The notes under the pieces: generated by a model
The model's input: the letters and a program-made list of their open reading frames with translations, nothing else
Told to the model about the DNA's origin: nothing
The model's database searches: none
Shown: in pieces, positions 1,411-61,339 of the stretch
Numbering within the stretch: the first letter of the stretch is position 1
How the letters are laid out: each line of letters opens with the position of its first letter
Made by a program: the position numbers and the translations under genes
NCBI RefSeq assembly: GCF_964213995.1
Contig: NC_135819.1
Location: 54,932,001-54,996,000, forward strand
Direction: 5' to 3'
Source of the DNA: Mustelus asterias
Lineage: Eukaryota
DNA length: 64,000 nucleotides

Positions 1411-4059
1411 TATTCAGCTAAATTATTCTTTTTCTTGAAGTTTACAAAGAAATGTTGGGTTGAGTACATACAGAACATTTCAGCAGCATTTCATAAAGAC
1501 TTATTAATGAGTTTGTCAGAAGTTTAGGTTTTTGTCTAACAGATTCTCTCAGATACAGCAGTGTTGGTTCTTTCTATAAGAGGGCCTAAGACAGTTATAT
1601 CCAAATCTTTGCCCATACTGCCCAATATCTAACCATACAAACCACTAATCTAGTGGTGTAATCTATAAATCCCTATGGTCTGAACTAGTGTGTGTCCCTT
1701 TTTGCACATTGGCTCCTCCAATATTTTTGAAGGCAGTCTTGAGAAATCAGTTGATAAGAAAAGGTCAGGTGCAAATTGTTCAGCTGTTTTCTTTCAAAGC
1801 AAATCAATGTGTCAGATCCATTTTGTTGAATCAGTACAATTCGTCCTCACTTAACAATATAAAATAATTAATATGCCACACTGCTCTCCATCAGCGAGCC
1901 ATCTGATTTGAAGTGAATAGAGTAACTATTAATAATCTTCTTGAATTCTCATTCTGAGCCTGGTCAAAACTTGACCTCATCACTGTCTTTCTACAACCCG
2001 ACCAAATTTGCTGGATCCGATTAATTGCCTTTGTCTCTACTATTTATCTCATTCAGTACACAGCCAGCAATGTTATGTTGTGCTATTTATTATTTGCTTC
2101 CCTGAAATGGGAATGTATACTATCTTACACAACTCATGGTTAAAATCCATCTGCCACTCCAAACTCCATCTGCTTAACAGTTCTCATGGAATGCTAGTAA
2201 AGCTATTCTTGCTCATCATCGGAAGATGCAGATATATGTTGACAGGAAGTTTTATGTTAGGTCAACATAACCCCATAAAAAGAAATCCAAAACTTTATCC
2301 TTCTGTCATTTAAAAAAAAGACTTTCTGCTAAACCAGAAAGATGGCTGCTACAAGTCACATGATAACAGGCTTGGCCCTTTGTTGTGGAAGCTTCTGACA
2401 GCAATTAAAAGAACACTAGAATTCCTCTCCAGCCTGCGAAATCTTACACTTCATTGTACACACCCCTTGTAAACAGCAAAAGCAGAGGAAGTGAAGACAA
2501 ACCGGTTCCCCAACTTGAACTTGAGAGAGATCGGAACACGCTATACGAGAAGAAATGCTAATAGCCACCTCATCTTTCACCTAAGGTGGGATTTGCAATT
2601 CTGGCCAGAAGAACAGAAACTGATTGTTAATTAACCAATAATGGGCCATGTCACATGACTGAAGCCTCTGGACTTTTGGACAGTTTTAACATTACTTATT
2701 TAGCCTCACACGCAGTCTGCTGTTTGACATTCAACTGGTAAACACCATCTTTGGCCTCACGGTCTGCTGTTTAACATCTGAACACCAAGAAGCAGAACTC
2801 TGGGCTGAACAATAGCTTGCTCCTCGAAGCCAATCTCTGCTGGAAGATTTCTTACCATCGCCTGCTGAACTGACCCAGTCTGTGTGCACCAATTTCAGCT
2901 TGCAGTATCAACACCAACTATAAAGCGAACTTTACAGCTTGGGTCCTCAGCCAGCTGAACTCCTTTGTGAAAGAACATCTCATTGGAATCTGAGTCTGGA
3001 CCCTGGAAATCATGTGAACTAACATTCATTTCTGTGGATCTTGTCCTGTTACTATCAATGGTTGTTCTATCCTCCTCTTACTCTGGGCGGGATCCTGAGA
3101 ACACATTCACATCCACGGGAATGATGGCATACGCTCAAAATGCAGAGGGTTCGGAAAGGCGTGATTCTCGCCACCGAGATCGGGTTTTCCAATTTTGAGC
3201 TACCTCGCCAGTGGAGTGACATGGAGTAGGGCGGGGAAGGGCACAAACCTAATTTAAATGCATCAACATATCATTAGCGAGCACCCACTCTGGATATTGA
3301 GGCCGCATCAAACATTCAGCTGGTGCCAGCGTGATGTCATGTCGGTGCCATTTACAACAGCTCTACATAGACGTGAACCGAACACCGTCACGTCCGAGGG
3401 GAATGTCGAGGTGAGCGCACAGGAGGCCATTATTTCTCAGGTAAGTCCAACATGCAAGAGGCACCAGGGAGAATGCTGTGGATGCACACAAGTGCAGCTC
3501 AAGGCCAGGGGTAAGGGTCACTGTCACCATCGGGGGGGGGGGGGCGTTGGCGGAGAGGGTTTGTGTGGGTTACTGTTCAAACAGTAGCTGAGTGGGTGCC
3601 ACAACAGAGGGGCAGTACTGCATCTATGAGGTTCTGGGGTCCTTCTTTGGGAGAGGCTAGGCAGCTTGGGCAGGGTGGGAGTCGCAGTGCTGGGGAGCTA
3701 CCCTCCTTCATGAGACATAAAGACCCTGTCCTCCATTGGGTGGGGGGGGGGGGCAGAGGGGTAGCGCCTTCCATGAATGGGGTCTCGGGAAGGGTGGGTA
3801 GGGTTGGCAGGGGGTTGGGCAGGAGGCAGAGGGGTGTAGTTGCCTGCAGCAAGGCTTCGTTATCCTGTTCTCAGTGCAGGAGAGGCATAGCACAACCATT
3901 AGTGACAGAAAAAGTTTTAACCAGGTCATCTCAGCCTTAATAAATCCATTAAGTTAACTTTTTGGTAGCAACAGGCTAAATGGATTTGATCTGCATCAGA
4001 AGTTGATAGTACTGACACAACATGAAGGCATTATTTTACAACTTTTAGAGATGCACCAT

Positions 4060-17892: not shown

Positions 17893-18425
17893 ATAGAATA
17901 CCTACAGCGCAGAAGAGGCCATTCGGCCCATTCTCTCTGACAGAGTAAATTACCCAGGCTCTCTCCCCTGCCCTATCTCTGTAACCCACACATTTACTAT
18001 CTAACCTACAGGGTCAATTTACCAAGGCCAATCCACCTAACCTGCGCATCCTTGGTAAAAGCAAAATACTGTAGATGCTGGAATCTGAAACAAAAACAGA
18101 AAATGCTGGAAAGTCTCACCAGGCCTGACAGCATCTGTGGGGAGAGAATAGAGCCAACGTTTCGAGTCTAGATCACCCTTCGTGACTCGAAACGTTGGCT
18201 ATATTCTCTCCCCACAGATGCTGTCAGGCCTGCTGAGATTTTCCAGCACTTTCTGTTTTTGCTGCACATCTTTGGACTGTGGAAGGAAACCGGAGCATCC
18301 GGAGGAAGCCCAGGAAACCCACTCAGACACAGGGAGAATGTGCAGACTCCACAGACGGTTACCCAAGGCCGGAATCAAACCCAGGTCCCTGGAACTGTGA
18401 GGCAGCTGTGCCACTGTGCCGCCAT
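17893..18425 (-). mobile_element. HE1-type SINE interrupted by a fold-back Penelope-type tail (~18056-18261)
   Basis: SINE halves flank a ~78-bp inverted repeat. Confidence 0.75.
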
Positions 18426-30437: not shown

Positions 30438-31588
30438 ATTAATGATAAAACTCAACCCGGGCATGCTTAAAAACAAACCAGCTCCAGACAGGCGCATATA
30501 CATGGAACACTGTACAAAGCTCAATGGCAATTTACTGTCCTCCTGAGGATTTCCCCAACACTCTTAGGTCATTGGGGTCTGTCTACTTCACTCAGGTGAT
30601 TGATAACAGGACTTTGCAGCTGAGATCTGCAGCTGTTTTATACAATACCACGTTTTAAACACAGGTTTGGACACTTCTATTTAAACACTACTTCTTCAAC
30701 ATTATATTTTAAACAGGCTTTTCTATGCACACACTCACCCCCAGTCACCAGTGACGTATAACTTTAACTTTGATCTCTCAATGCTTTCAATACACTATTC
30801 CCCTCATTTTAGAATCATAGAATCCCTGCAGTGCAGAAAAAGGCCATTCGGCCCATTATGCCTGCACCAACAATAATCCCATCCAGGCCCTATCCCCGTA
30901 ACCCTATACATCTACCCTACTAATCTCCCTGACACGAAGGGACAATTTACCGTAGCCAATCAACCTAACCTCTATTGATTATCCGCATATAATTCCACTG
31001 TCCCAGCAGTTTTCCCTCCAGTGCTTAGGGAGTAGCCTGTGTTTTGTCATTGTCTTTGATTCTTGTTTCACTCCTGATTCTCATCAAAATATTGTTTGTA
31101 GGAGGCATTATTCTTTAGTATAGGATTCATTTTCATACATATGGTGGCTTTCAGCAACTTTACCTTTTCATCACCACTATCCTTGACCATGAAGCTGTTC
31201 GACAAACTCTATGTCATGGATGATCCGAAACCTCTTGCAGCTCAAGGTCTGAACCATTCTATTTAAGCTCCAACAGACACTCTAGACATTATCCCCTGAT
31301 CCAAACCCACTTTTCCGGATGTGTAATCAAGAACAACCTTAGTGACTCACACAACTCTGAGCAGAGCTGCAAGCCTCACATCCTATTCCCCACCAGGACT
31401 GCCTGCATTTACCTCCAAGACATTACCTACCTCCATTCCTTTAGCACAGTTGAAACTATCACGCACATAATTGATCTCGTGGGAGTGTTTTTTGAATGGC
31501 TCCCTCTAAAGTGCCACCTCCCATATTTTACAAATAATTTTTCATCTTGCCATCCTTTCTGAAGTACAATCCCCAGAATTGGACACAA

Positions 31589-31926
31589 TTTTTTTTTTAT
31601 ACTTTTCCAATTCAATCAAATCAAATCCAATTCAGAGTCTCAACAAGTTGAGACATTTCCGATCCAGGCTGACAGGACAGGGCGAGCGACCAAATCACCC
31701 TGTCCTGGGCCTGATCTACATGAGCCAAGCTGATTGGAGAAGGGGGAGGTTCCTCCTCCAAGACTTGAACTCATTTGCATCTTAGCCAAAAGGCCGAGAT
31801 GCCGCCCCAAAAAATTGCTTCATATGAAACATATGAAGCTTCAGTGTAACCTAATGACCTCAACCAAGCGCAGCCGACCATGGGCAGCCGACCATACTAC
31901 ACTTGATCCTAGCCAAAAGACCGAGA
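31589..31926 (-). mobile_element. U2 snRNA-headed retroposon (SINEU-like), copy A
   Basis: Reverse of TCTCGGTCTTTTGGCTAGGATCAAGTGTAGTAT (U2 5' end), polyA tail, TSD GACACAAT, inserted in a CR1 remnant. Confidence 0.85.
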
Positions 31927-32254
31927 CACAATACTCTAGTTGAGGCCTATAACCAGTGTTTTATAAAGATTTGGAATAATTGTCTTGTTTTTATATACTA
32001 CGTCCCTATTAATAAAGCTAAGGATGCCATTTGTTTTCTTAATTGCTTTTTCGACTTGTCCTGCTACCGTTAGGTTTTTGTACATCTATCTCCATGTAGC
32101 TCTATTCCTGTCATACCCTTTAAAATTATTATGTTTATATTGTCTCTCCTCATTCGTCTTACCAAGATGTATCACTTTACACTTTGCTGCACTAAATATC
32201 AGCTTATCATGTGATGCCCATTTTACTAGCCAATCCTCCTGAAGTATCTGTGAC

Positions 32255-32494: not shown

Positions 32495-33145
32495 CCTGCT
32501 GTATACTTAATTCAAACCTGAAGAGCAACTGTTCACCACTATTCTTTGCTTTCAGTTGCTTAGTCAATTTTGTATCAAAACTGCCACTGCTCCTTTAATC
32601 CCATGGGTTTCAATTTTGGAAACAAGTCTATTATGTGACACATTGTCCACCACTTTTTAAAAAATCTATATACTCAACATTGACCCTAATACCCTGAACA
32701 TTCTGTTACATCGTGAAAGAATTGGATGTTCCCAAATTCAGTTACCTCCTCTGCTTGTTTTCAGGTTAACTGTCCTTGAAGGTCTGGTTAATGCGAGTAT
32801 GAAAACTGGGGTTACCAATACATGTCCTACTATTCACTGATGTGGTATATCAGTGCTACAACACATAAGAACCAAAGCACCTCCCTTCTTACCATTTCTT
32901 AATTACAATTTATATGAGTAACTCAATATAAAGGCTCAATCAAACTAAGCTCTCACTTATTTAAATTCACCATGTTCCATTTTCCCTAAACAGGAATTGG
33001 ACTGAGTTGAATTTGACTTAATAACAAGAAGAGCAACAGCTGAGACAAGGGAAAACATTTCCTCTCCATGCTGTTATGAAAACATCTTTACAACTTTGCT
33101 CCTCTTGATCCACAGATGAAATCTTCCCCTGGCTCACTTCCTTTT

Positions 33146-34020
33146 TGCCTTCTTGCCTTCAAAGGCACTTCTTGCCTTCAAACAACCACGCAACCTCAAA
33201 CAGACAATTGTCCGCAGCAAACTACCCAGCCTTCAGGAGAACAGTGACCATGACACCACACAACCCTGCCACAGCAACCTCTGCAAGACATGCCGGATCA
33301 TCGACACGGATGCCATCATCTCACGTGAGAACACCATCTACCAGGTACACGGTACATACTCTTGCAACTCGGCCAACGTTGTCTACCTGATACGCTGCAG
33401 GAAAGGATGTCCCGAGGCATGGTACATTGGGGAAACCATGCAGACGCTACGACAATGGATGAATGAACACCGCTCGACAATCACCAGGCAAGACTGTTCT
33501 CTTCCTGTGGGGGAGCACTTCAGCAGTCACGGGCATTCAGCCTTGGATCTTCAGGTAAGCGTTCTCCAAGGTGGCCTTCACGACACACGACAGCGCAGAG
33601 TCGCTGAGCAGAAACTGATAGCCAAGTTCCGCACACATGAGGACGGCCTAAACCGGGATGTTGGATTTATGTCACATTATCAGTAACCCCCACAGCTTGC
33701 CTCCTGATCTTGCAGAATCTTACTAGCTGTTCTGTCTGGAGACAATACACATCTCTTTAACCTGTGTTTAATGTTCCCTCCACCCACTTTATCTTTAAGA
33801 CCTGGCTGGCTGTAGAGATTTGCATTCTAATTAGTATTCTGTAACTTGATGTTGTGTCTCTGTGCACTGTTGAAGAACAGATTTTCACTCCATCTGACGA
33901 AGGGGCAGCGCTCCAAAAGCTTATGGTATTTGCTACCAAATAAACCTGTTGGACTTTAACCTGGTGTTGTGAGACTTCTTACTGTGCTTACCCCAGTCCA
34001 ACGCCGGCATCTCCACATCA
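33146..34020 (+). mobile_element. 5'-truncated Penelope-like element (GIY-YIG endonuclease + pLTR)
   Basis: NVVYLIRC..WYIGET.QTLRQ.MNEHR...GLNRD ORF; TSD TCACTTCCTTTT. Confidence 0.92.
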
Positions 34021-34925: not shown

Positions 34926-35529
34926 ACAGCCCCCCCCCACCCCACCCCCCGCCATGCCCCCAATAGTTTAAAGATGGCATGCATCAGGTGAGGTTGTTCA
35001 ACGTTTGGGTCTGAGGTGAGGTTTTGTCTTTTTCTAACTCAGCAACACAGGATTACTCGCCAAGGAAGGTAATGGATGGAAGGAGGCGAGAGTGGAGAAG
35101 GTATTGCTTGGGTCCTCAAATATCACAGCGGCTAAAAAAGATGGTGGACCTTGTGCTCAGGTCCTGGAGTGGCAGCACAGCAAGGCACGGGCAGGTTTGG
35201 GGGCAGGTTGAGAAGGGAAGAGCTGTCTGAAGAGAAGCAGGCCTAGAGGGCAGGTCTGTCATTGCAATGGCCTCATCCTATGTGCCCAAGTGAGACAGCA
35301 GCATATGAACTGTCAGGGAAGGGAGTTTGAGTTTGAAGCAGGAAAGATCCAGCTGCAAGTTCACAGTGTTAGCATCTATCAACTTGGCTGCTAAGAAAGT
35401 TGTACCTTGCTGGAGGTTCAGGTGTTCAGGTACTGTGAGGAAATTCTTACCTCGTCGGAGATTAGATTGTTCTGGGTTGTTCTGGGGCTGGGGGGATGGG
35501 GGTGGGGCAGTTCTGGATGTCTCTGGAAA

Positions 35530-36203
35530 CGGGATCTTGGGTTCATGTCACACTATCTGTAACCCCCACAACTTGCCTGGGCTTGCAAAATCTTACTAAC
35601 TGTCATGACTTGAGACAATTCACAGGTCTTTAACCTGTGCCTAACCCTCTCTCCACTCACATTGTCTGCACTTGTAAAGACTTGATTACCTGTTAAGACA
35701 CGCATTCTAACCATTATCTTGTAAATTGAGTCTGTCTCTATATATGCCCTGTTTGTGAACCCAATTCTTCATTCACCTGATGAAAGGGCAGCACTCCGAA
35801 AGCTCGTGCTTCTCGGCCTTTTGGCTAAGATCAAGTGTAGTATGGTCGGCAGCCCATGGTCGGCCACACTTGGTTGAGGTCATTAGGTTACACTGAAGCT
35901 TCATATGTTTCATATGAAGCAATTTTTTGGGGCGGCATCTCGGCCTTTTGGCTAAGATGCAAATGAGCTTAAGTCTTGGAGGAGGAACCTCCCCCTTCTC
36001 CAATCAGCTTGGCTCATGTAGATCAGGCCCAGGACAGGGTGGTTTGGTCGCTCGCCCTGTCTTGTCAGCCTGGATCGGAAATGTCTCAACTTGTTGAGAC
36101 TCTGAATTGGATTTGATTGAATTGGAAAAGTATAAAAAAATAAACCTGTTGTGAGACTTCTTACTGTGCCCACCCCAGTCCAACGCCGGCATCCCCACAT
36201 CAT
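35530..36203 (+). mobile_element. Penelope pLTR fragment hosting the U2-headed element
   Basis: Matches 59720-60059 on both sides of the insert. Confidence 0.8.
35808..36140 (+). mobile_element. U2 snRNA-headed retroposon (SINEU-like), copy B
   Basis: GCTTCTCGGCCTTTTGGCTAAGATCAAGTGTAGTAT = U2 nt 4-39; body nearly identical to copy A; A-rich tail. Confidence 0.87.
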
Positions 36204-51808: not shown

Positions 51809-52546
51809 TCAGAGAGGGACACTTCTCGTGTTCTCCTGCACTTCAGGGTTGGGAATCCTCGAAGCCAGTAGACACGCCAACACGATGCCAATCACTTGGA
51901 TCACCGCCAGTCCCAGCGCCCCGGTGGCGATGTGGAACAAGTTGTCGTTGACGAAATCGTAAATCTTCTTGAAGCAGCCGTCCTGGTAGATGCCCTGGGC
52001 GCCCAGGGCCAGGGGGTTGTTCTGGCAGCCCCTCCGCACGGTGCAGCAGCTCAGGGGCACCGAGCCGTTCCGCAGCTGCTCCTGGGACCAGGGCGAGGAC
52101 ACCCAGTCCTTGTAGCTCTCCACCCCGCAGCAGTCCAGGGTGCGCTGGATGTCGTCCATGGCGTTGGCTTTCTCCTCGTCCTCCGCGTACACCTGGATGG
52201 CGGCGGCCAGCCCGTTGCGGAATCCCTCGGCGATGTCCTTGCGGTAGAACAAGCCGGAGAGGCCGGCGGACAAGCCGCCGATCAGCACCACCATCTGGAA
52301 CACCCCGTACGTCTTGAGGAGGCACTTGTGCTCCGTGGCGGCGCTGAAGCAGCCCAGGAAGCCCCAGACGATGACCGCGGCGCCGGTGGCCAGCAGGATG
52401 GCCGGGGTGTTGGGGTAGTCGTTGGTGGACAGCTCCAGGTAGCTGCCCAGGGAGATCTTGGCCCAGATGCCAACCGTGAACATGGTGAGCCCAGCTGCCC
52501 AGAAGATGAAGCTGAACCCCATCAAGGAGAGTTTGAGCAAAGCCAT
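51809..52546 (-). CDS. Intronless tetraspanin (TSPAN7-like), 245 aa
   Basis: First ATG gives MALLKLSLMGFSFIFWAAG; four hydrophobic segments; GFLGC, CCG, PLSCC and GC motifs of the large loop; uninterrupted ORF with very high GC3. Confidence 0.93.
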   Translation of the reverse strand: MALLKLSLMGFSFIFWAAGLTMFTVGIWAKISLGSYLELSTNDYPNTPAILLATGAAVIVWGFLGCFSAATEHKCLLKTYGVFQMVVLIGGLSAGLSGLFYRKDIAEGFRNGLAAAIQVYAEDEEKANAMDDIQRTLDCCGVESYKDWVSSPWSQEQLRNGSVPLSCCTVRRGCQNNPLALGAQGIYQDGCFKKIYDFVNDNLFHIATGALGLAVIQVIGIVLACLLASRIPNPEVQENTRSVPL

Positions 52547-56235: not shown

Positions 56236-56526
56236 AATTTGTCCTCCACAGCATTAATGCTAATCAGGTTTATCCAGCCTTTAAAAAAAATTTTTTTACT
56301 CCATTCTTAAAATTATAAAGCCAATACTCAGAATGGACCGAGCAAACCCAAATCCCAATTGAATCAAATTCAAGGTCCACACAAGGGAGACAAACAAGAT
56401 CCAAGCTGACAAGATGAGGCATTGCACCCCATCTTGGGCTTGATCTTAGCCTTTCTGCAGATTTAAGTCCCCCATGATTACTGTATTACCCTTGTTACAT
56501 GCACCTCTGATCTCCTAATTTATTAC

Positions 56527-58142: not shown

Positions 58143-60059
58143 TTCCAGATGCAATTTTACAACTCATCCGCTTCATCCTGGACCACAATGTCTTCACCTT
58201 CAACAACCAGTTCTTCATCCAGACACACGGAACAGCCATGGGGACCAAATCCGCACCTCAATATGCGAACACCTTCATGCACAGGTTCGAACAAGGCCTC
58301 TTCACCGCACAAGACCTTCAACCGATGCTATACACTAGATACATCAATGACATTTTCTTCCTTTGGACTCATGGTGAACAATCACTGAAACAACTATGTG
58401 ATAGTCAATATCTTTTCCCAAAGGTAGGGGCGTCTAAAACTAGAGGGTACAGGTTTAAGGTGAGAGGGGAGAGATACAAAAGTGTCTAGAGGGGCAATTT
58501 TTTCACACAGAGGCTGGTGAGCGTCTGGAACAAGCTGCCAGAGGTAGTAGTAGAGGCGGGTACAATTTGTCTTTTAAAAAGCATTTCGAGAGTAACATGG
58601 GTACGATGGGTATAGAGGGACATGGGCCAAATGCGGGCAATTGGGATTTGCTTAGGGGTTTTTTAAAAAAATGGCGGCATGGACAAGTTGGGCCGAAGGG
58701 CCTGTTTCCATGCTGTAAACCTCTATGACTCTATGATGACATCAACAAGTTCCATCCCACCATCAGACTCACCATGGACTACTCTCCGGAATCGGTTGCA
58801 TTTTTGGACACACGCATCTCCATTAAGGACGGTCACCTCAGCACTTCACTGTACCGCAAGCCCACGGATAACCTCACGATGCTCCACTTCTCCAGCTTCC
58901 ATCCTAAACACGTTAAAGAAGCCATCCCCTATGGACATCCCGTCCGTATACACAGGATCTGCTCAGATGAGGAGGATCGCAACAGGCACCTCCCGACACT
59001 GAAAGATGCCCTCATAAGAACAGGATATGGCGCTCGACTCATCGATTGAAAGTTCCAACACGCCATAGCAAGAAACCGCACCGACCTCCTCAGAAGACAA
59101 ACACGGGACACGGTGGACAGCGTACCCTTCGTCGTCCAGTACTTCCCGGCGCGGAGAAGCTACGACATCTCCTCCAGAGTCTTCAACATGTCATTGATGA
59201 AGACGAACATCTCGTCAAGGCCATCCCCACACCCCCACTTCTTGCCTTCAAACAACCGCACAACCTCAGACAATTGCCCGCAGCAAACTACCCAGCCTTC
59301 AGGAGAACAGTGACCACGACACCACACAATCCTGCCACAGCAACCTCTGCAAGACGTGCCGGATCATCGACACGGATGCCATCATCTCACGTGAGAACAT
59401 CATCCACCAGGTACACGGTACATACTCCTGCAACTCGGTCAACGTTGTCTACCTGATACGCTGCAGGAAAAGATGCCCCGAGGCATGGTACATTGGGGAG
59501 ACCATGCAGATGCTACGACAACGGATGAATGAACACCGCTCGACAATCACCAGGCAAGAGTGTTCTCTTCCTGTTGGGGAACACTTCAGCGGTCACGGGC
59601 ATTCGGCCTCTGATCTTCGGGTAAGCGTTCTCCAAGGCGGCCTTCACGACACACGACAGCGCAGAGTCACTGAGCAGAGACTGATAGCCAAGTTCTGCAC
59701 ACATGAGGACAGCCTCAACCGGGATCTTGGGTTCATGTCACACTATCTGTAACCCCCACGACTTGCCTGGACTTGCAAAATCTCACTAACTGTCCTGTCT
59801 GGAGACAATACACATCTCTTTAACTTGTGCTTAACGCTCTCTCCATTCACATTGTCTGTACCTTTAAGACTTGATTACCTGTAAAGACTCGCATTCCAAT
59901 CATTATTTTGTAAATTGAGTTTGTGTCTTTATACGCCCTGTTTATGAATAGAACTCCCACTCACCTGATGAAGGGGCAGCAAGCACTCCGAAAGCTAGTG
60001 GCTTTTGCTACCAAATAAACCTGTTGGACTTTAACCTGGTGTTGTGAGACTTCTTACTG
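58143..60059 (+). mobile_element. Penelope-like element (RT + GIY-YIG + pLTR), 5' truncated, in an L2-like remnant
   Basis: GTAMGTKSAPQYAN, RYINDIF, FLDTRI..LYRKPT motifs; TSD TATCAGAAAATATGT; interrupted by a CR1 tail at ~58399-58733. Confidence 0.92.
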
Positions 60060-61339
60060 TATCAGAAAATATGTCAGGCTGCACGAACACACTGAGGATA
60101 CCATCCATCTCAACATTTCCACTGTCTCTGATTTGTCACACTGCCTGTTCAAAATTCAACACCAGATGAGCAGAAATTTCTTCCAACTAAACTTGGACAA
60201 GAACAAAACTATTGGCTTCAGTCCCTGCCATATATCATTTCCTTCTAACTGTCCGAGGCTTAACCAGACCATTCGCAAACTTGGCTCATCTAAAACTCGG
60301 CTGCCTGCATTCTAAATTATATTAAGTCCCACTCAACTCACCAAAATTCCTTTGACAGCATCCTCCAAACCCATGATCTCTACCACTGAGAAGGACAAGG
60401 GCAGCAGATGCATGTGAACACCACCACCTTCAAGTTACCTTCCAAGCCATACACCACACAAACCTGGAACTATATCGCTGTTCCTTCACTGTCACTCAGT
60501 CAAAATCCTGGAACTCTCTTTCTAAAAGCACCATGTGTGTTCCGACAACACATGGGCTGCAGCAGTTCAAGAAGGCAGCACACCACCATCTTTTCAAGGG
60601 CAATTAGGGATTGACAAGAAATGCTAGTACAGCCAGCGATGTCCACATCCCATGAACGGCTCCATTTAAAACAATTCATCCATCACCCAGTGTGCCCTGA
60701 CCTACATTGACACCCAGTCCAACAGCACTTCCATTTAAAATTCTCATCCTTATTTCCAATTCCCTCCATGGCCTTTCCTCTTCCTTATCACCTGTCAGTT
60801 TTCAGCCCAAGCCTCAACGTTGTCCAGATCTTGCTGCATATGAGCATGGGCATAGAGTCCCAATTAGTACCCACCATCTGAATACAAATAACAACCAATT
60901 GATAAACAATTAACATTACAAATGTTGATCCGTGCATTGCTGCTAGTTACCCAAGAGACTAACCAGATTCCTGAATTCTTGCATTGCACACAGAACCATA
61001 AGATCATAAGACATAGGAGCAGAAATAGGCCGCTTGGCCCATCACGTCTGCTCCGCCATTCAATCATGGCTGATATTTTTCTCATCCCAGAAGACGCATT
61101 ACTACCAAATCAGACGTTGGAAGTGAATCAGCATCTCTGTAAAGGAGAGTCACTAGAAAACAGCTTCTTTTCTGAATTTTCAGACACTATTGTTCCTTTT
61201 ACTCAATACTACCAGGATGTTCACCTATGATTTCTTCACAAACTTCAGCAAAATCTGCAAGAGTTGAAGGGTTAGCAAAAATGTAATAAGGCACTTTAGA
61301 TATTCTATTCAAGCTCATTGCTACATCTAGGCTGACAAT

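Follow-up and report, generated by a model that had tools for sequence, protein, structure and literature searches.

The sequence at 35808-36140 of the window (by which we mean the whole 64-kb stretch of shark DNA analysed here) begins with the 5′ end of U2 snRNA and ends in an A tail. It raises two questions: whether it is a single chimera or a member of a propagating family, and how an element of this kind is transcribed and copied. We show that it belongs to a propagating, non-coding SINEU-like family, and consider it fairly probable that this family is copied by a Keno-type LINE, with source copies in U2 arrays transcribed from U2 promoters.

U2-headed copies in the window and in the genome

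The element at 35808-36140 (copy A) is a near full-length, plus-strand member of a young subfamily. Its head (35808-35843) ends at the Keno insertion site and had been identified as U2 nt 4-39 in the preliminary description; it proved to be 100% identical to the U2 gene of the same genome. The head is followed, on the same strand, by a subfamily-specific loop (35844-35865) that changes stepwise along the family tree, an arm predicted by folding to pair back onto the U2 head and to cover most of its branch-point-pairing stretch (35864-35900), and a 10-bp hairpin with a subsequent T run resembling both an Sm site and a Pol III stop signal (35898-35930), just 3′ of which lies an A>G hot spot. An inner U2 piece (35935-35960) comes next, then a 3′ body of hairpins (35961-36133) and the A tail (36134-36140). 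The inner piece matches U2 nt 4-27 with one mismatch (35935-35958), is predicted to retain stem-loop I as a 10-bp stem and is likely an older head. Thus, the part behind the head, previously regarded as about 290 nt of non-U2 sequence, is mostly so, but contains a second U2 piece. The last ~100 nt of the body are homologous to an older U2-headed family, named here family B. A perfect octamer lies across the end of the inner U2 piece (35957-35964); in U1 genes the octamer is found at about -200.

Copy B (31590-31926, minus strand) belongs to the same subfamily, starts from U2 nt 7 and has an A tail. It is 95.5% identical to copy A across 335 nt (E 5e-155), and its 8-bp target-site duplication (TSD; 31582-31589 on the tail side, 31925-31932 on the head side) fits the relaxed U2 site described below, so a near-identical, TSD-flanked copy on the opposite strand does exist as first described. 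The Rfam U2 model gives the two heads 41.8 and 33.5 bits, under the gathering score of 46. Copy A lacks a TSD. It splits a repeat, of which four further copies occur in the window, and at the junction about 12 nt of this repeat have been lost. The two copies had been taken as independent sites, but both carry a 3-base A>G variant present in just 12 copies genome-wide, and they are therefore less mutually independent than first assumed. The triple change is located at 35926-35933 and at about 31800-31810; among its 12 carriers, two are separated by 4 kb and inverted relative to each other. Our guess for this shared variant is gene conversion between neighbouring copies.

The window also contains a family B copy (56286-56451, minus strand), an older and simpler U2-headed element that has the 3′ module in common with the SINE and a 7-bp TSD-like repeat. 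Repeats that we take to be Penelope-like are located at 33120-33985, 59201-60060 and 35527-35808; the last of these borders copy A, which is inserted in its end, and another copy (L316) is similarly placed. Elsewhere in the window, there is a single-ORF tetraspanin-7-like gene (51812-52546, minus strand). Its product has 91% and 90% identity with proteins of two sharks and 84% and 82% with batoid ones, which places the host among the sharks; an exact look-up of the protein gave no match. The window also has a long inverted repeat (18083-18269) with a weak mir-5681 match below the gathering score.

We found that the U2-headed retroposon is about 335 nt long, with an A tail, TSDs of 8-26 bp and about eight subfamilies. 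Searching the 3.68-Gb genome at the DNA level yielded 1,750 candidates, and the 40 that were scored are near full-length matches at 96-100%. A 23-mer at the inner U2 piece has 5,097 exact matches and a 28-mer near the tail has 4,598, both on both strands and with 0 control matches; the loop motif of the window subfamily has 649, again with 0 control matches. The overlap of the two markers on C1 (lists of 100 and 92, with 61 in common) indicates about 7,700 copies, likely an underestimate. With thousands of copies bearing individual TSDs, the family is clearly not limited to the two copies in the window, and the earlier proposal of a propagating family instead of a one-off chimera holds.

The anatomy of the copies was read from the first positional matches on C1, which are unranked and conditioned on the exact 23-mer. 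The head is retained in 83 of these 95 copies, starting at U2 nt 1-13 in 79 of the 83 and at +1 in 19, and the U2 match stops at nt 37 or 39 in 74. Beyond +1, headed copies have no common 5′ flank apart from variant-U2 DNA. Among the 11 copies that start at +1 and have a TSD, five start clear of it and six overlap it by 1-9 nt, so the +1 count is inflated by microhomology. When these copies were pooled with the best-scoring genome-search matches and the window pair, 109 copies had both head and tail, and 58 of these are flanked by a TSD of at least 8 nt. Thirty tail-anchored copies were also read: the head is reached in 21 and a later start is seen in nine, and none continues into a LINE. Tandem copies are common: for 18 of 100 matches, another copy lies on the same strand within 420 nt.

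A ladder-like series of about eight subfamilies emerged from a tree of 119 copies, with the loop that follows nt 37 as their marker. Copies of the window subfamily diverge from the column majority by 1.9%, those of the other subfamilies by 2-7%. When old subfamilies are compared with young ones, the head and the inner U2 piece differ by 4-5% and the body by 15-18%. Each subfamily has a constant head-body junction which, together with the TSDs and the tails free of any LINE, indicates that the SINE propagates as one unit. We rejected the idea that the junction is remade at every U2 insertion, since the loop changes stepwise along the tree.

For family B, the search returned 3,293 candidates, of which 40 were scored (74-96%, self match aside) and 15 loci were read. 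Here, the U2 head is joined directly to the 3′ module homologous to the last ~100 nt of the SINE. Both families would fit a stepwise addition of heads, as in SINEU-1. One family-B-like copy (L269, about 1680-1740, minus strand) opens with the 5′ end of U1, directly followed by U2 nt 11-28; exact patterns for a U1-headed form of family B gave 0 matches. In a word-sharing comparison, 20 of 23 sequence runs contain part of the stretch, and five further organisms hold 0.21-0.42 of its words (runs under 0.2 were left out). This is more than the head alone could give and suggests that relatives exist elsewhere.

A Keno-type LINE and the target site

We then investigated the U2 arrays on C24 (42.98-43.07 and 44.81-44.94 Mb), which have units of 1,833 bp and 8,035 bp. 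In the longer unit, U2 is interrupted at nt 37/38 by a LINE that has two ORFs, a 21-bp TSD and a U2 head of its own. Its Pfam domains are ZCCHC3-type RNA-binding domains, a zinc knuckle, an APE-type endonuclease, a reverse transcriptase (RT) and zf-RVT; LINE copies in this genome carry U2 nt 1-33/35 as the head, and some have an open ORF2 of 1,135 aa. In the excerpts of PMC6136364 and PMC4640811 consulted, nt 37/38 is the Keno site, with a matching 3′ flank. By its insertion site and domains, the LINE is probably a Keno-type Tx1 element; none of its 48 homologues is named Keno. The LINE tail has 602 exact matches, mostly dispersed, and U2 nt 38 onward follows the tail at only one of 30 positional tail loci, indicating that the LINE is not strictly specific for U2.

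The SINE uses a similar target. Empty sites were reconstructed for 44 insertions (48 non-tandem TSD copies minus four whose TSD did not start with A). They have GY|A in 24 of 44 cases, compared with 15% in the flanks (p 1e-9), and AGY|A in 16 (p 3e-11). An L1-type target was rejected, since TT|AAA occurs at just one of the 44. Five SINE tails continue into U2 nt 38-52. Furthermore, the SINE adjoins the LINE in six of 29 distinct LINE-tail loci, with a chance expectation below 0.1% per side, and in three of eight loci with a long LINE ORF. Neither alignment nor the 30 tail-anchored SINE copies revealed a tail common to SINE and LINE, and recognition would therefore go through the A tail. It is likely that the SINE is copied by the shark's Keno-type Tx1 LINE, which among Tx1/L1 families was the one covered by our partner survey.

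Several loci show further traces of the LINE in U2 genes. At C24 44.81-44.94 Mb (L070 and L071), the 8,035-bp unit, which consists of one intact U2 gene and one broken Keno in a U2 fragment, is repeated about 16 times. In the main array (C24 43.02-43.04 Mb; L317-L319), there are U2 genes with nt 18-37 repeated and nt 38-47 lost, which we read as Keno-site damage spread to several units. Two dispersed Keno copies (L220 and L230) begin with U2 nt 10-59 or with 92 nt of variant-U2 spacer. These 5′ ends suggest that transcription of the LINE, like that proposed for the SINE, takes place at U2 loci.

Source copies, predicted RNA fold and probable editing footprint

A variant U2 gene on C21 is 85-90% identical to U2 and has a 447-bp unit. 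It contains what we take to be a PSE-like 3′ half, at the position known from U1 genes, and a presumed 3′-box-like motif. At C21 28.05-28.08 Mb (L224-L227), a variant U2 array with an inversion is mostly filled by Keno and SINE copies. A search with the variant-U2 spacer gave 30 matches, and the 18 that extend to -1 were classed: nine enter a SINE, five a Keno and four an intact U2 (the 12 shorter matches were left unclassed). The SINE-linked spacers range from the oldest subfamily, at 75% spacer identity, through young ones at 97-99%. On C24, the canonical U2 promoter at the array end leads directly into a SINE with an internal deletion, which is followed by a Keno, a second SINE (15-bp TSD) directly behind the Keno tail, and U2 from nt 38 on.

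Array DNA has also moved to other sites. One dispersed array piece of about 1.7 kb contains three SINEs, ends in a SINE tail and has an 18-bp TSD, and a second dispersed array unit contains a SINE with a Keno tip and a 10-bp TSD. At L170 and L174/L175, a U2 piece, 93 or 13 nt of spacer and a SINE are enclosed together by TSDs. The presence of array DNA inside TSD-flanked dispersed inserts indicates that array-resident copies were transcribed and retroposed, and so acted as sources. However, copies with upstream DNA number only about a dozen among thousands, and they stem from read-through RNA begun upstream of +1. They are thus proof of copying from arrays and not of +1 starts for the bulk. 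We infer that +1 starts at U2 promoters made most SINE copies.

The promoter-bearing locus envisaged in the preliminary description has counterparts in these SINE copies joined to U2 upstream regions, but in none of the window's own subfamily: among its 649 matches, no promoter-linked or U2-inserted copy was found. Exact-pattern searches can miss copies, as the deleted promoter-fused SINE escaped one, and array turnover or collapsed assembly could lie behind the missing source.

This missing array copy is in line with a different arrangement of the same family and LINE, in which the sources are dispersed copies with internal or chance upstream promoters and the array copies are merely targets. 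The octamer at 35957-35964 and a PSE-like 10-mer that the body has in common with the U2 PSE region also fit it and count against a borrowed promoter, and the frequent tandem copies would place one body upstream of the next. We nevertheless regard dispersed sources as unlikely. The PSE-like stretch is about 90-100 nt ahead of the next copy start, as opposed to about 62 in U1/U2 genes, and is predicted to be a paired stem. Headed copies have no common foreign 5′ flank, while spacer-linked copies recur across old and young subfamilies.

Alternatively, a headless RNA might have gained or renewed its head when the reverse transcriptase switched templates to U2 snRNA, which has been proposed for the SINEU-2 extensions in crocodiles (Kojima 2015, PMC4494074). 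Additional U2 pieces before some copies (L136, L170, L174 and L321) and the nested heads of the SINE and of family B could be explained in this way. A non-transcribed spacer between two U2 pieces, however, cannot derive from the mature snRNA, the junction is constant in each subfamily and follows the branching of the tree by inheritance, and the body contains an arm complementary to the head. Template switching therefore seems quite improbable to us as the source of the head.

Even less credible is an internally deleted Keno, that is, a SIDE-like non-autonomous LINE instead of a SINE. Keno copies have a U2 head of their own (nt 1-33/35) and share the insertion site, but no significant similarity was seen between the SINE body and either Keno UTR (5′ or 3′; shuffle p 0.36-0.71), and the body gave no significant alignment with U2 40-191, U1 or either U2 upstream region. 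The origin from a U2-targeted LINE that had been suggested is thus supported as mobilisation, by the common target and the adjacency with Keno, but not as descent, and the comparison with LINE UTRs proposed in the preliminary description showed no detectable likeness of the SINE body to those of Keno. Finally, local duplication or a single U2 chimera would agree with the rare variant common to both window copies and is refuted by the 5,097 and 4,598 exact matches on both strands, with 0 control matches, and the TSDs in 58 of 109 copies.

Returning to source copies in U2 arrays, the following life cycle can be proposed. A SINE landing at U2 nt 37/38 would join its head to the 5′ end of the host gene and thereby fall under the host PSE, and Pol II would start the SINE transcript at U2 +1. 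The Keno ORF2 protein would then prime on the SINE A tail. Most new copies would reach look-alike sites without a promoter and be dead ends, whereas rare re-entries into a U2 array would replenish the sources and prevent the head from drifting away from U2. Before being copied, the folded RNA would likely undergo A-to-I editing. Our confidence is evenly divided over the fullest form of this proposal, in which a promoter-less homing SINE would owe its whole history to a few array re-entries, with seamless joining of the head, a branch-point stretch hidden by the foldback, and ADAR edits written into the genome.

The predicted RNA is a chain of hairpins (fold z -6.4). The duplex between arm and head has -33 kcal/mol, compared with -18 for shuffled arms, and is better than the shuffles in 107 of 109 copies. 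Two-sided covariation among 18 representative copies was limited to one pair with two or more double changes, with none in the 5′ foldback; the structure thus rests on folding energy and one-sided changes. An Rfam search of the body gave no other family above chance, including no ribozyme, 5S or 7SL match, and a tRNA search of the SINE found none. The Pol III internal-promoter head of classical SINEs (tRNA, 5S or 7SL) is therefore absent, and the internal T4-T6 runs argue against transcription by Pol III.

Sense-strand changes in the positional sample are skewed, with 78 A>G against 44 T>C changes (p 2e-6 when base counts are taken into account), but G>A and C>T show no such imbalance (76 and 64; p 0.6). 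Among ten non-window copies picked by one A-run variant, eight have 7-26 A>G changes, and a double A>G motif has eight matches where the double T>C control has 0. In 19 copies chosen for such changes, and hence biased, A>G outnumbers T>C by 176 to 16; the A>G rate is highest after T (0.28) and A (0.25) and lowest after G (0.05), and only six of the 176 fall in the last 130 nt. ADAR favours As after T or A and disfavours those after G. Judging from this pattern, ADAR editing is the likely cause of the A>G excess, and RT error or repair bias may contribute to its mild general part. A thin literature search found no paper on A-to-I footprints in genomic SINE copies.

Comparison with SINEU and other site-specific systems

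In the main text of Kojima 2015 (PMC4494074), SINEU is reported from crocodilians only, with its transcription left open and Mariner flanks suggested, and in the excerpts of a 2018 follow-up consulted, transcription is still undemonstrated. We found no report of a shark U2-headed SINE in the part of the open-access literature and shark genome supplements that was searched, although an unspecific entry for it may well exist in automated shark repeat libraries. The shark loci with a SINE under a U2 promoter, and the retroposed array fragments tracing RNA back to such loci, make the question of SINEU transcription testable. A borrowed U2 promoter would help explain how snRNA-headed SINEs are transcribed, and if the proposed homing through U2 arrays is true, the shark would provide a second origin of such SINEs together with a worked answer on their transcription. 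The family is also a probable case of a site-specific LINE whose loosened specificity brings a passenger to thousands of sites. The young TSD-flanked copies are markers for shark phylogeny, and the copies offer a genomic record of germline A-to-I editing, with ADAR likely involved.

The shark SINE has the general features of SINEU: an snRNA head (from U1 or U2 in SINEU, U2 nt 1-39 here), a short non-coding sequence of about 335 nt, an A tail, propagation as one unit and a target preference in common with a Tx1 LINE of the Keno group. According to the same text of PMC4494074, SINEU-1, -2 and -3 likewise have a U2 head, an A tail, a length under 500 nt and internal T runs, and SINEU-1 gained nested heads over time, as the shark SINE probably did. 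Tandem insertion, the lack of a LINE with the same 3′ end and a probable mobilisation by Keno-related Tx1 elements are also common to both. On the other hand, SINEU prefers Mariner-N4_AMi, while the shark SINE is inserted at U2 nt 37/38 and at short look-alikes in unrelated flanks. SINEU-2 and SINEU-3 have a U2 3′ part, and since the shark SINE has no likeness to U2 40-191 or U1, these layouts are excluded for it. Fusions to U2-upstream DNA and array-derived transductions are seen in the shark SINE, in contrast to the transcription left open for SINEU, and the foldback arm and A>G footprint go without mention for SINEU in the main text of PMC4494074.

The partner LINE agrees with Keno, as portrayed in excerpts of PMC4494074, PMC4640811 and PMC6136364, in its two ORFs, APE-type endonuclease, RT, zf-RVT and insertion at U2 nt 37/38, and differs in its relaxed specificity (602 exact tail matches, mostly dispersed) and its own U2 head. 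Utopia uses the same U2 site (PMC4640811, excerpts) but has a restriction-like endonuclease, unlike the APE-type shark LINE. The pairing of LINE and SINE resembles that of R2 and SIDEs in 28S rDNA (PMC3414825 and PMC6765202, excerpts), in that a non-autonomous passenger of a site-specific retrotransposon is transcribed, presumably so for the SINE, with the multicopy target gene. SIDEs, however, are deleted R2/R1 elements that are ribozyme-excised, rare and bound to rDNA, whereas the shark SINE retains the 5′ end of its host gene as a head, gives no ribozyme match in Rfam and occupies thousands of sites. We conclude that the shark SINE is a variant of SINEU that, going by the published descriptions, may be distinct from the named crocodilian families.
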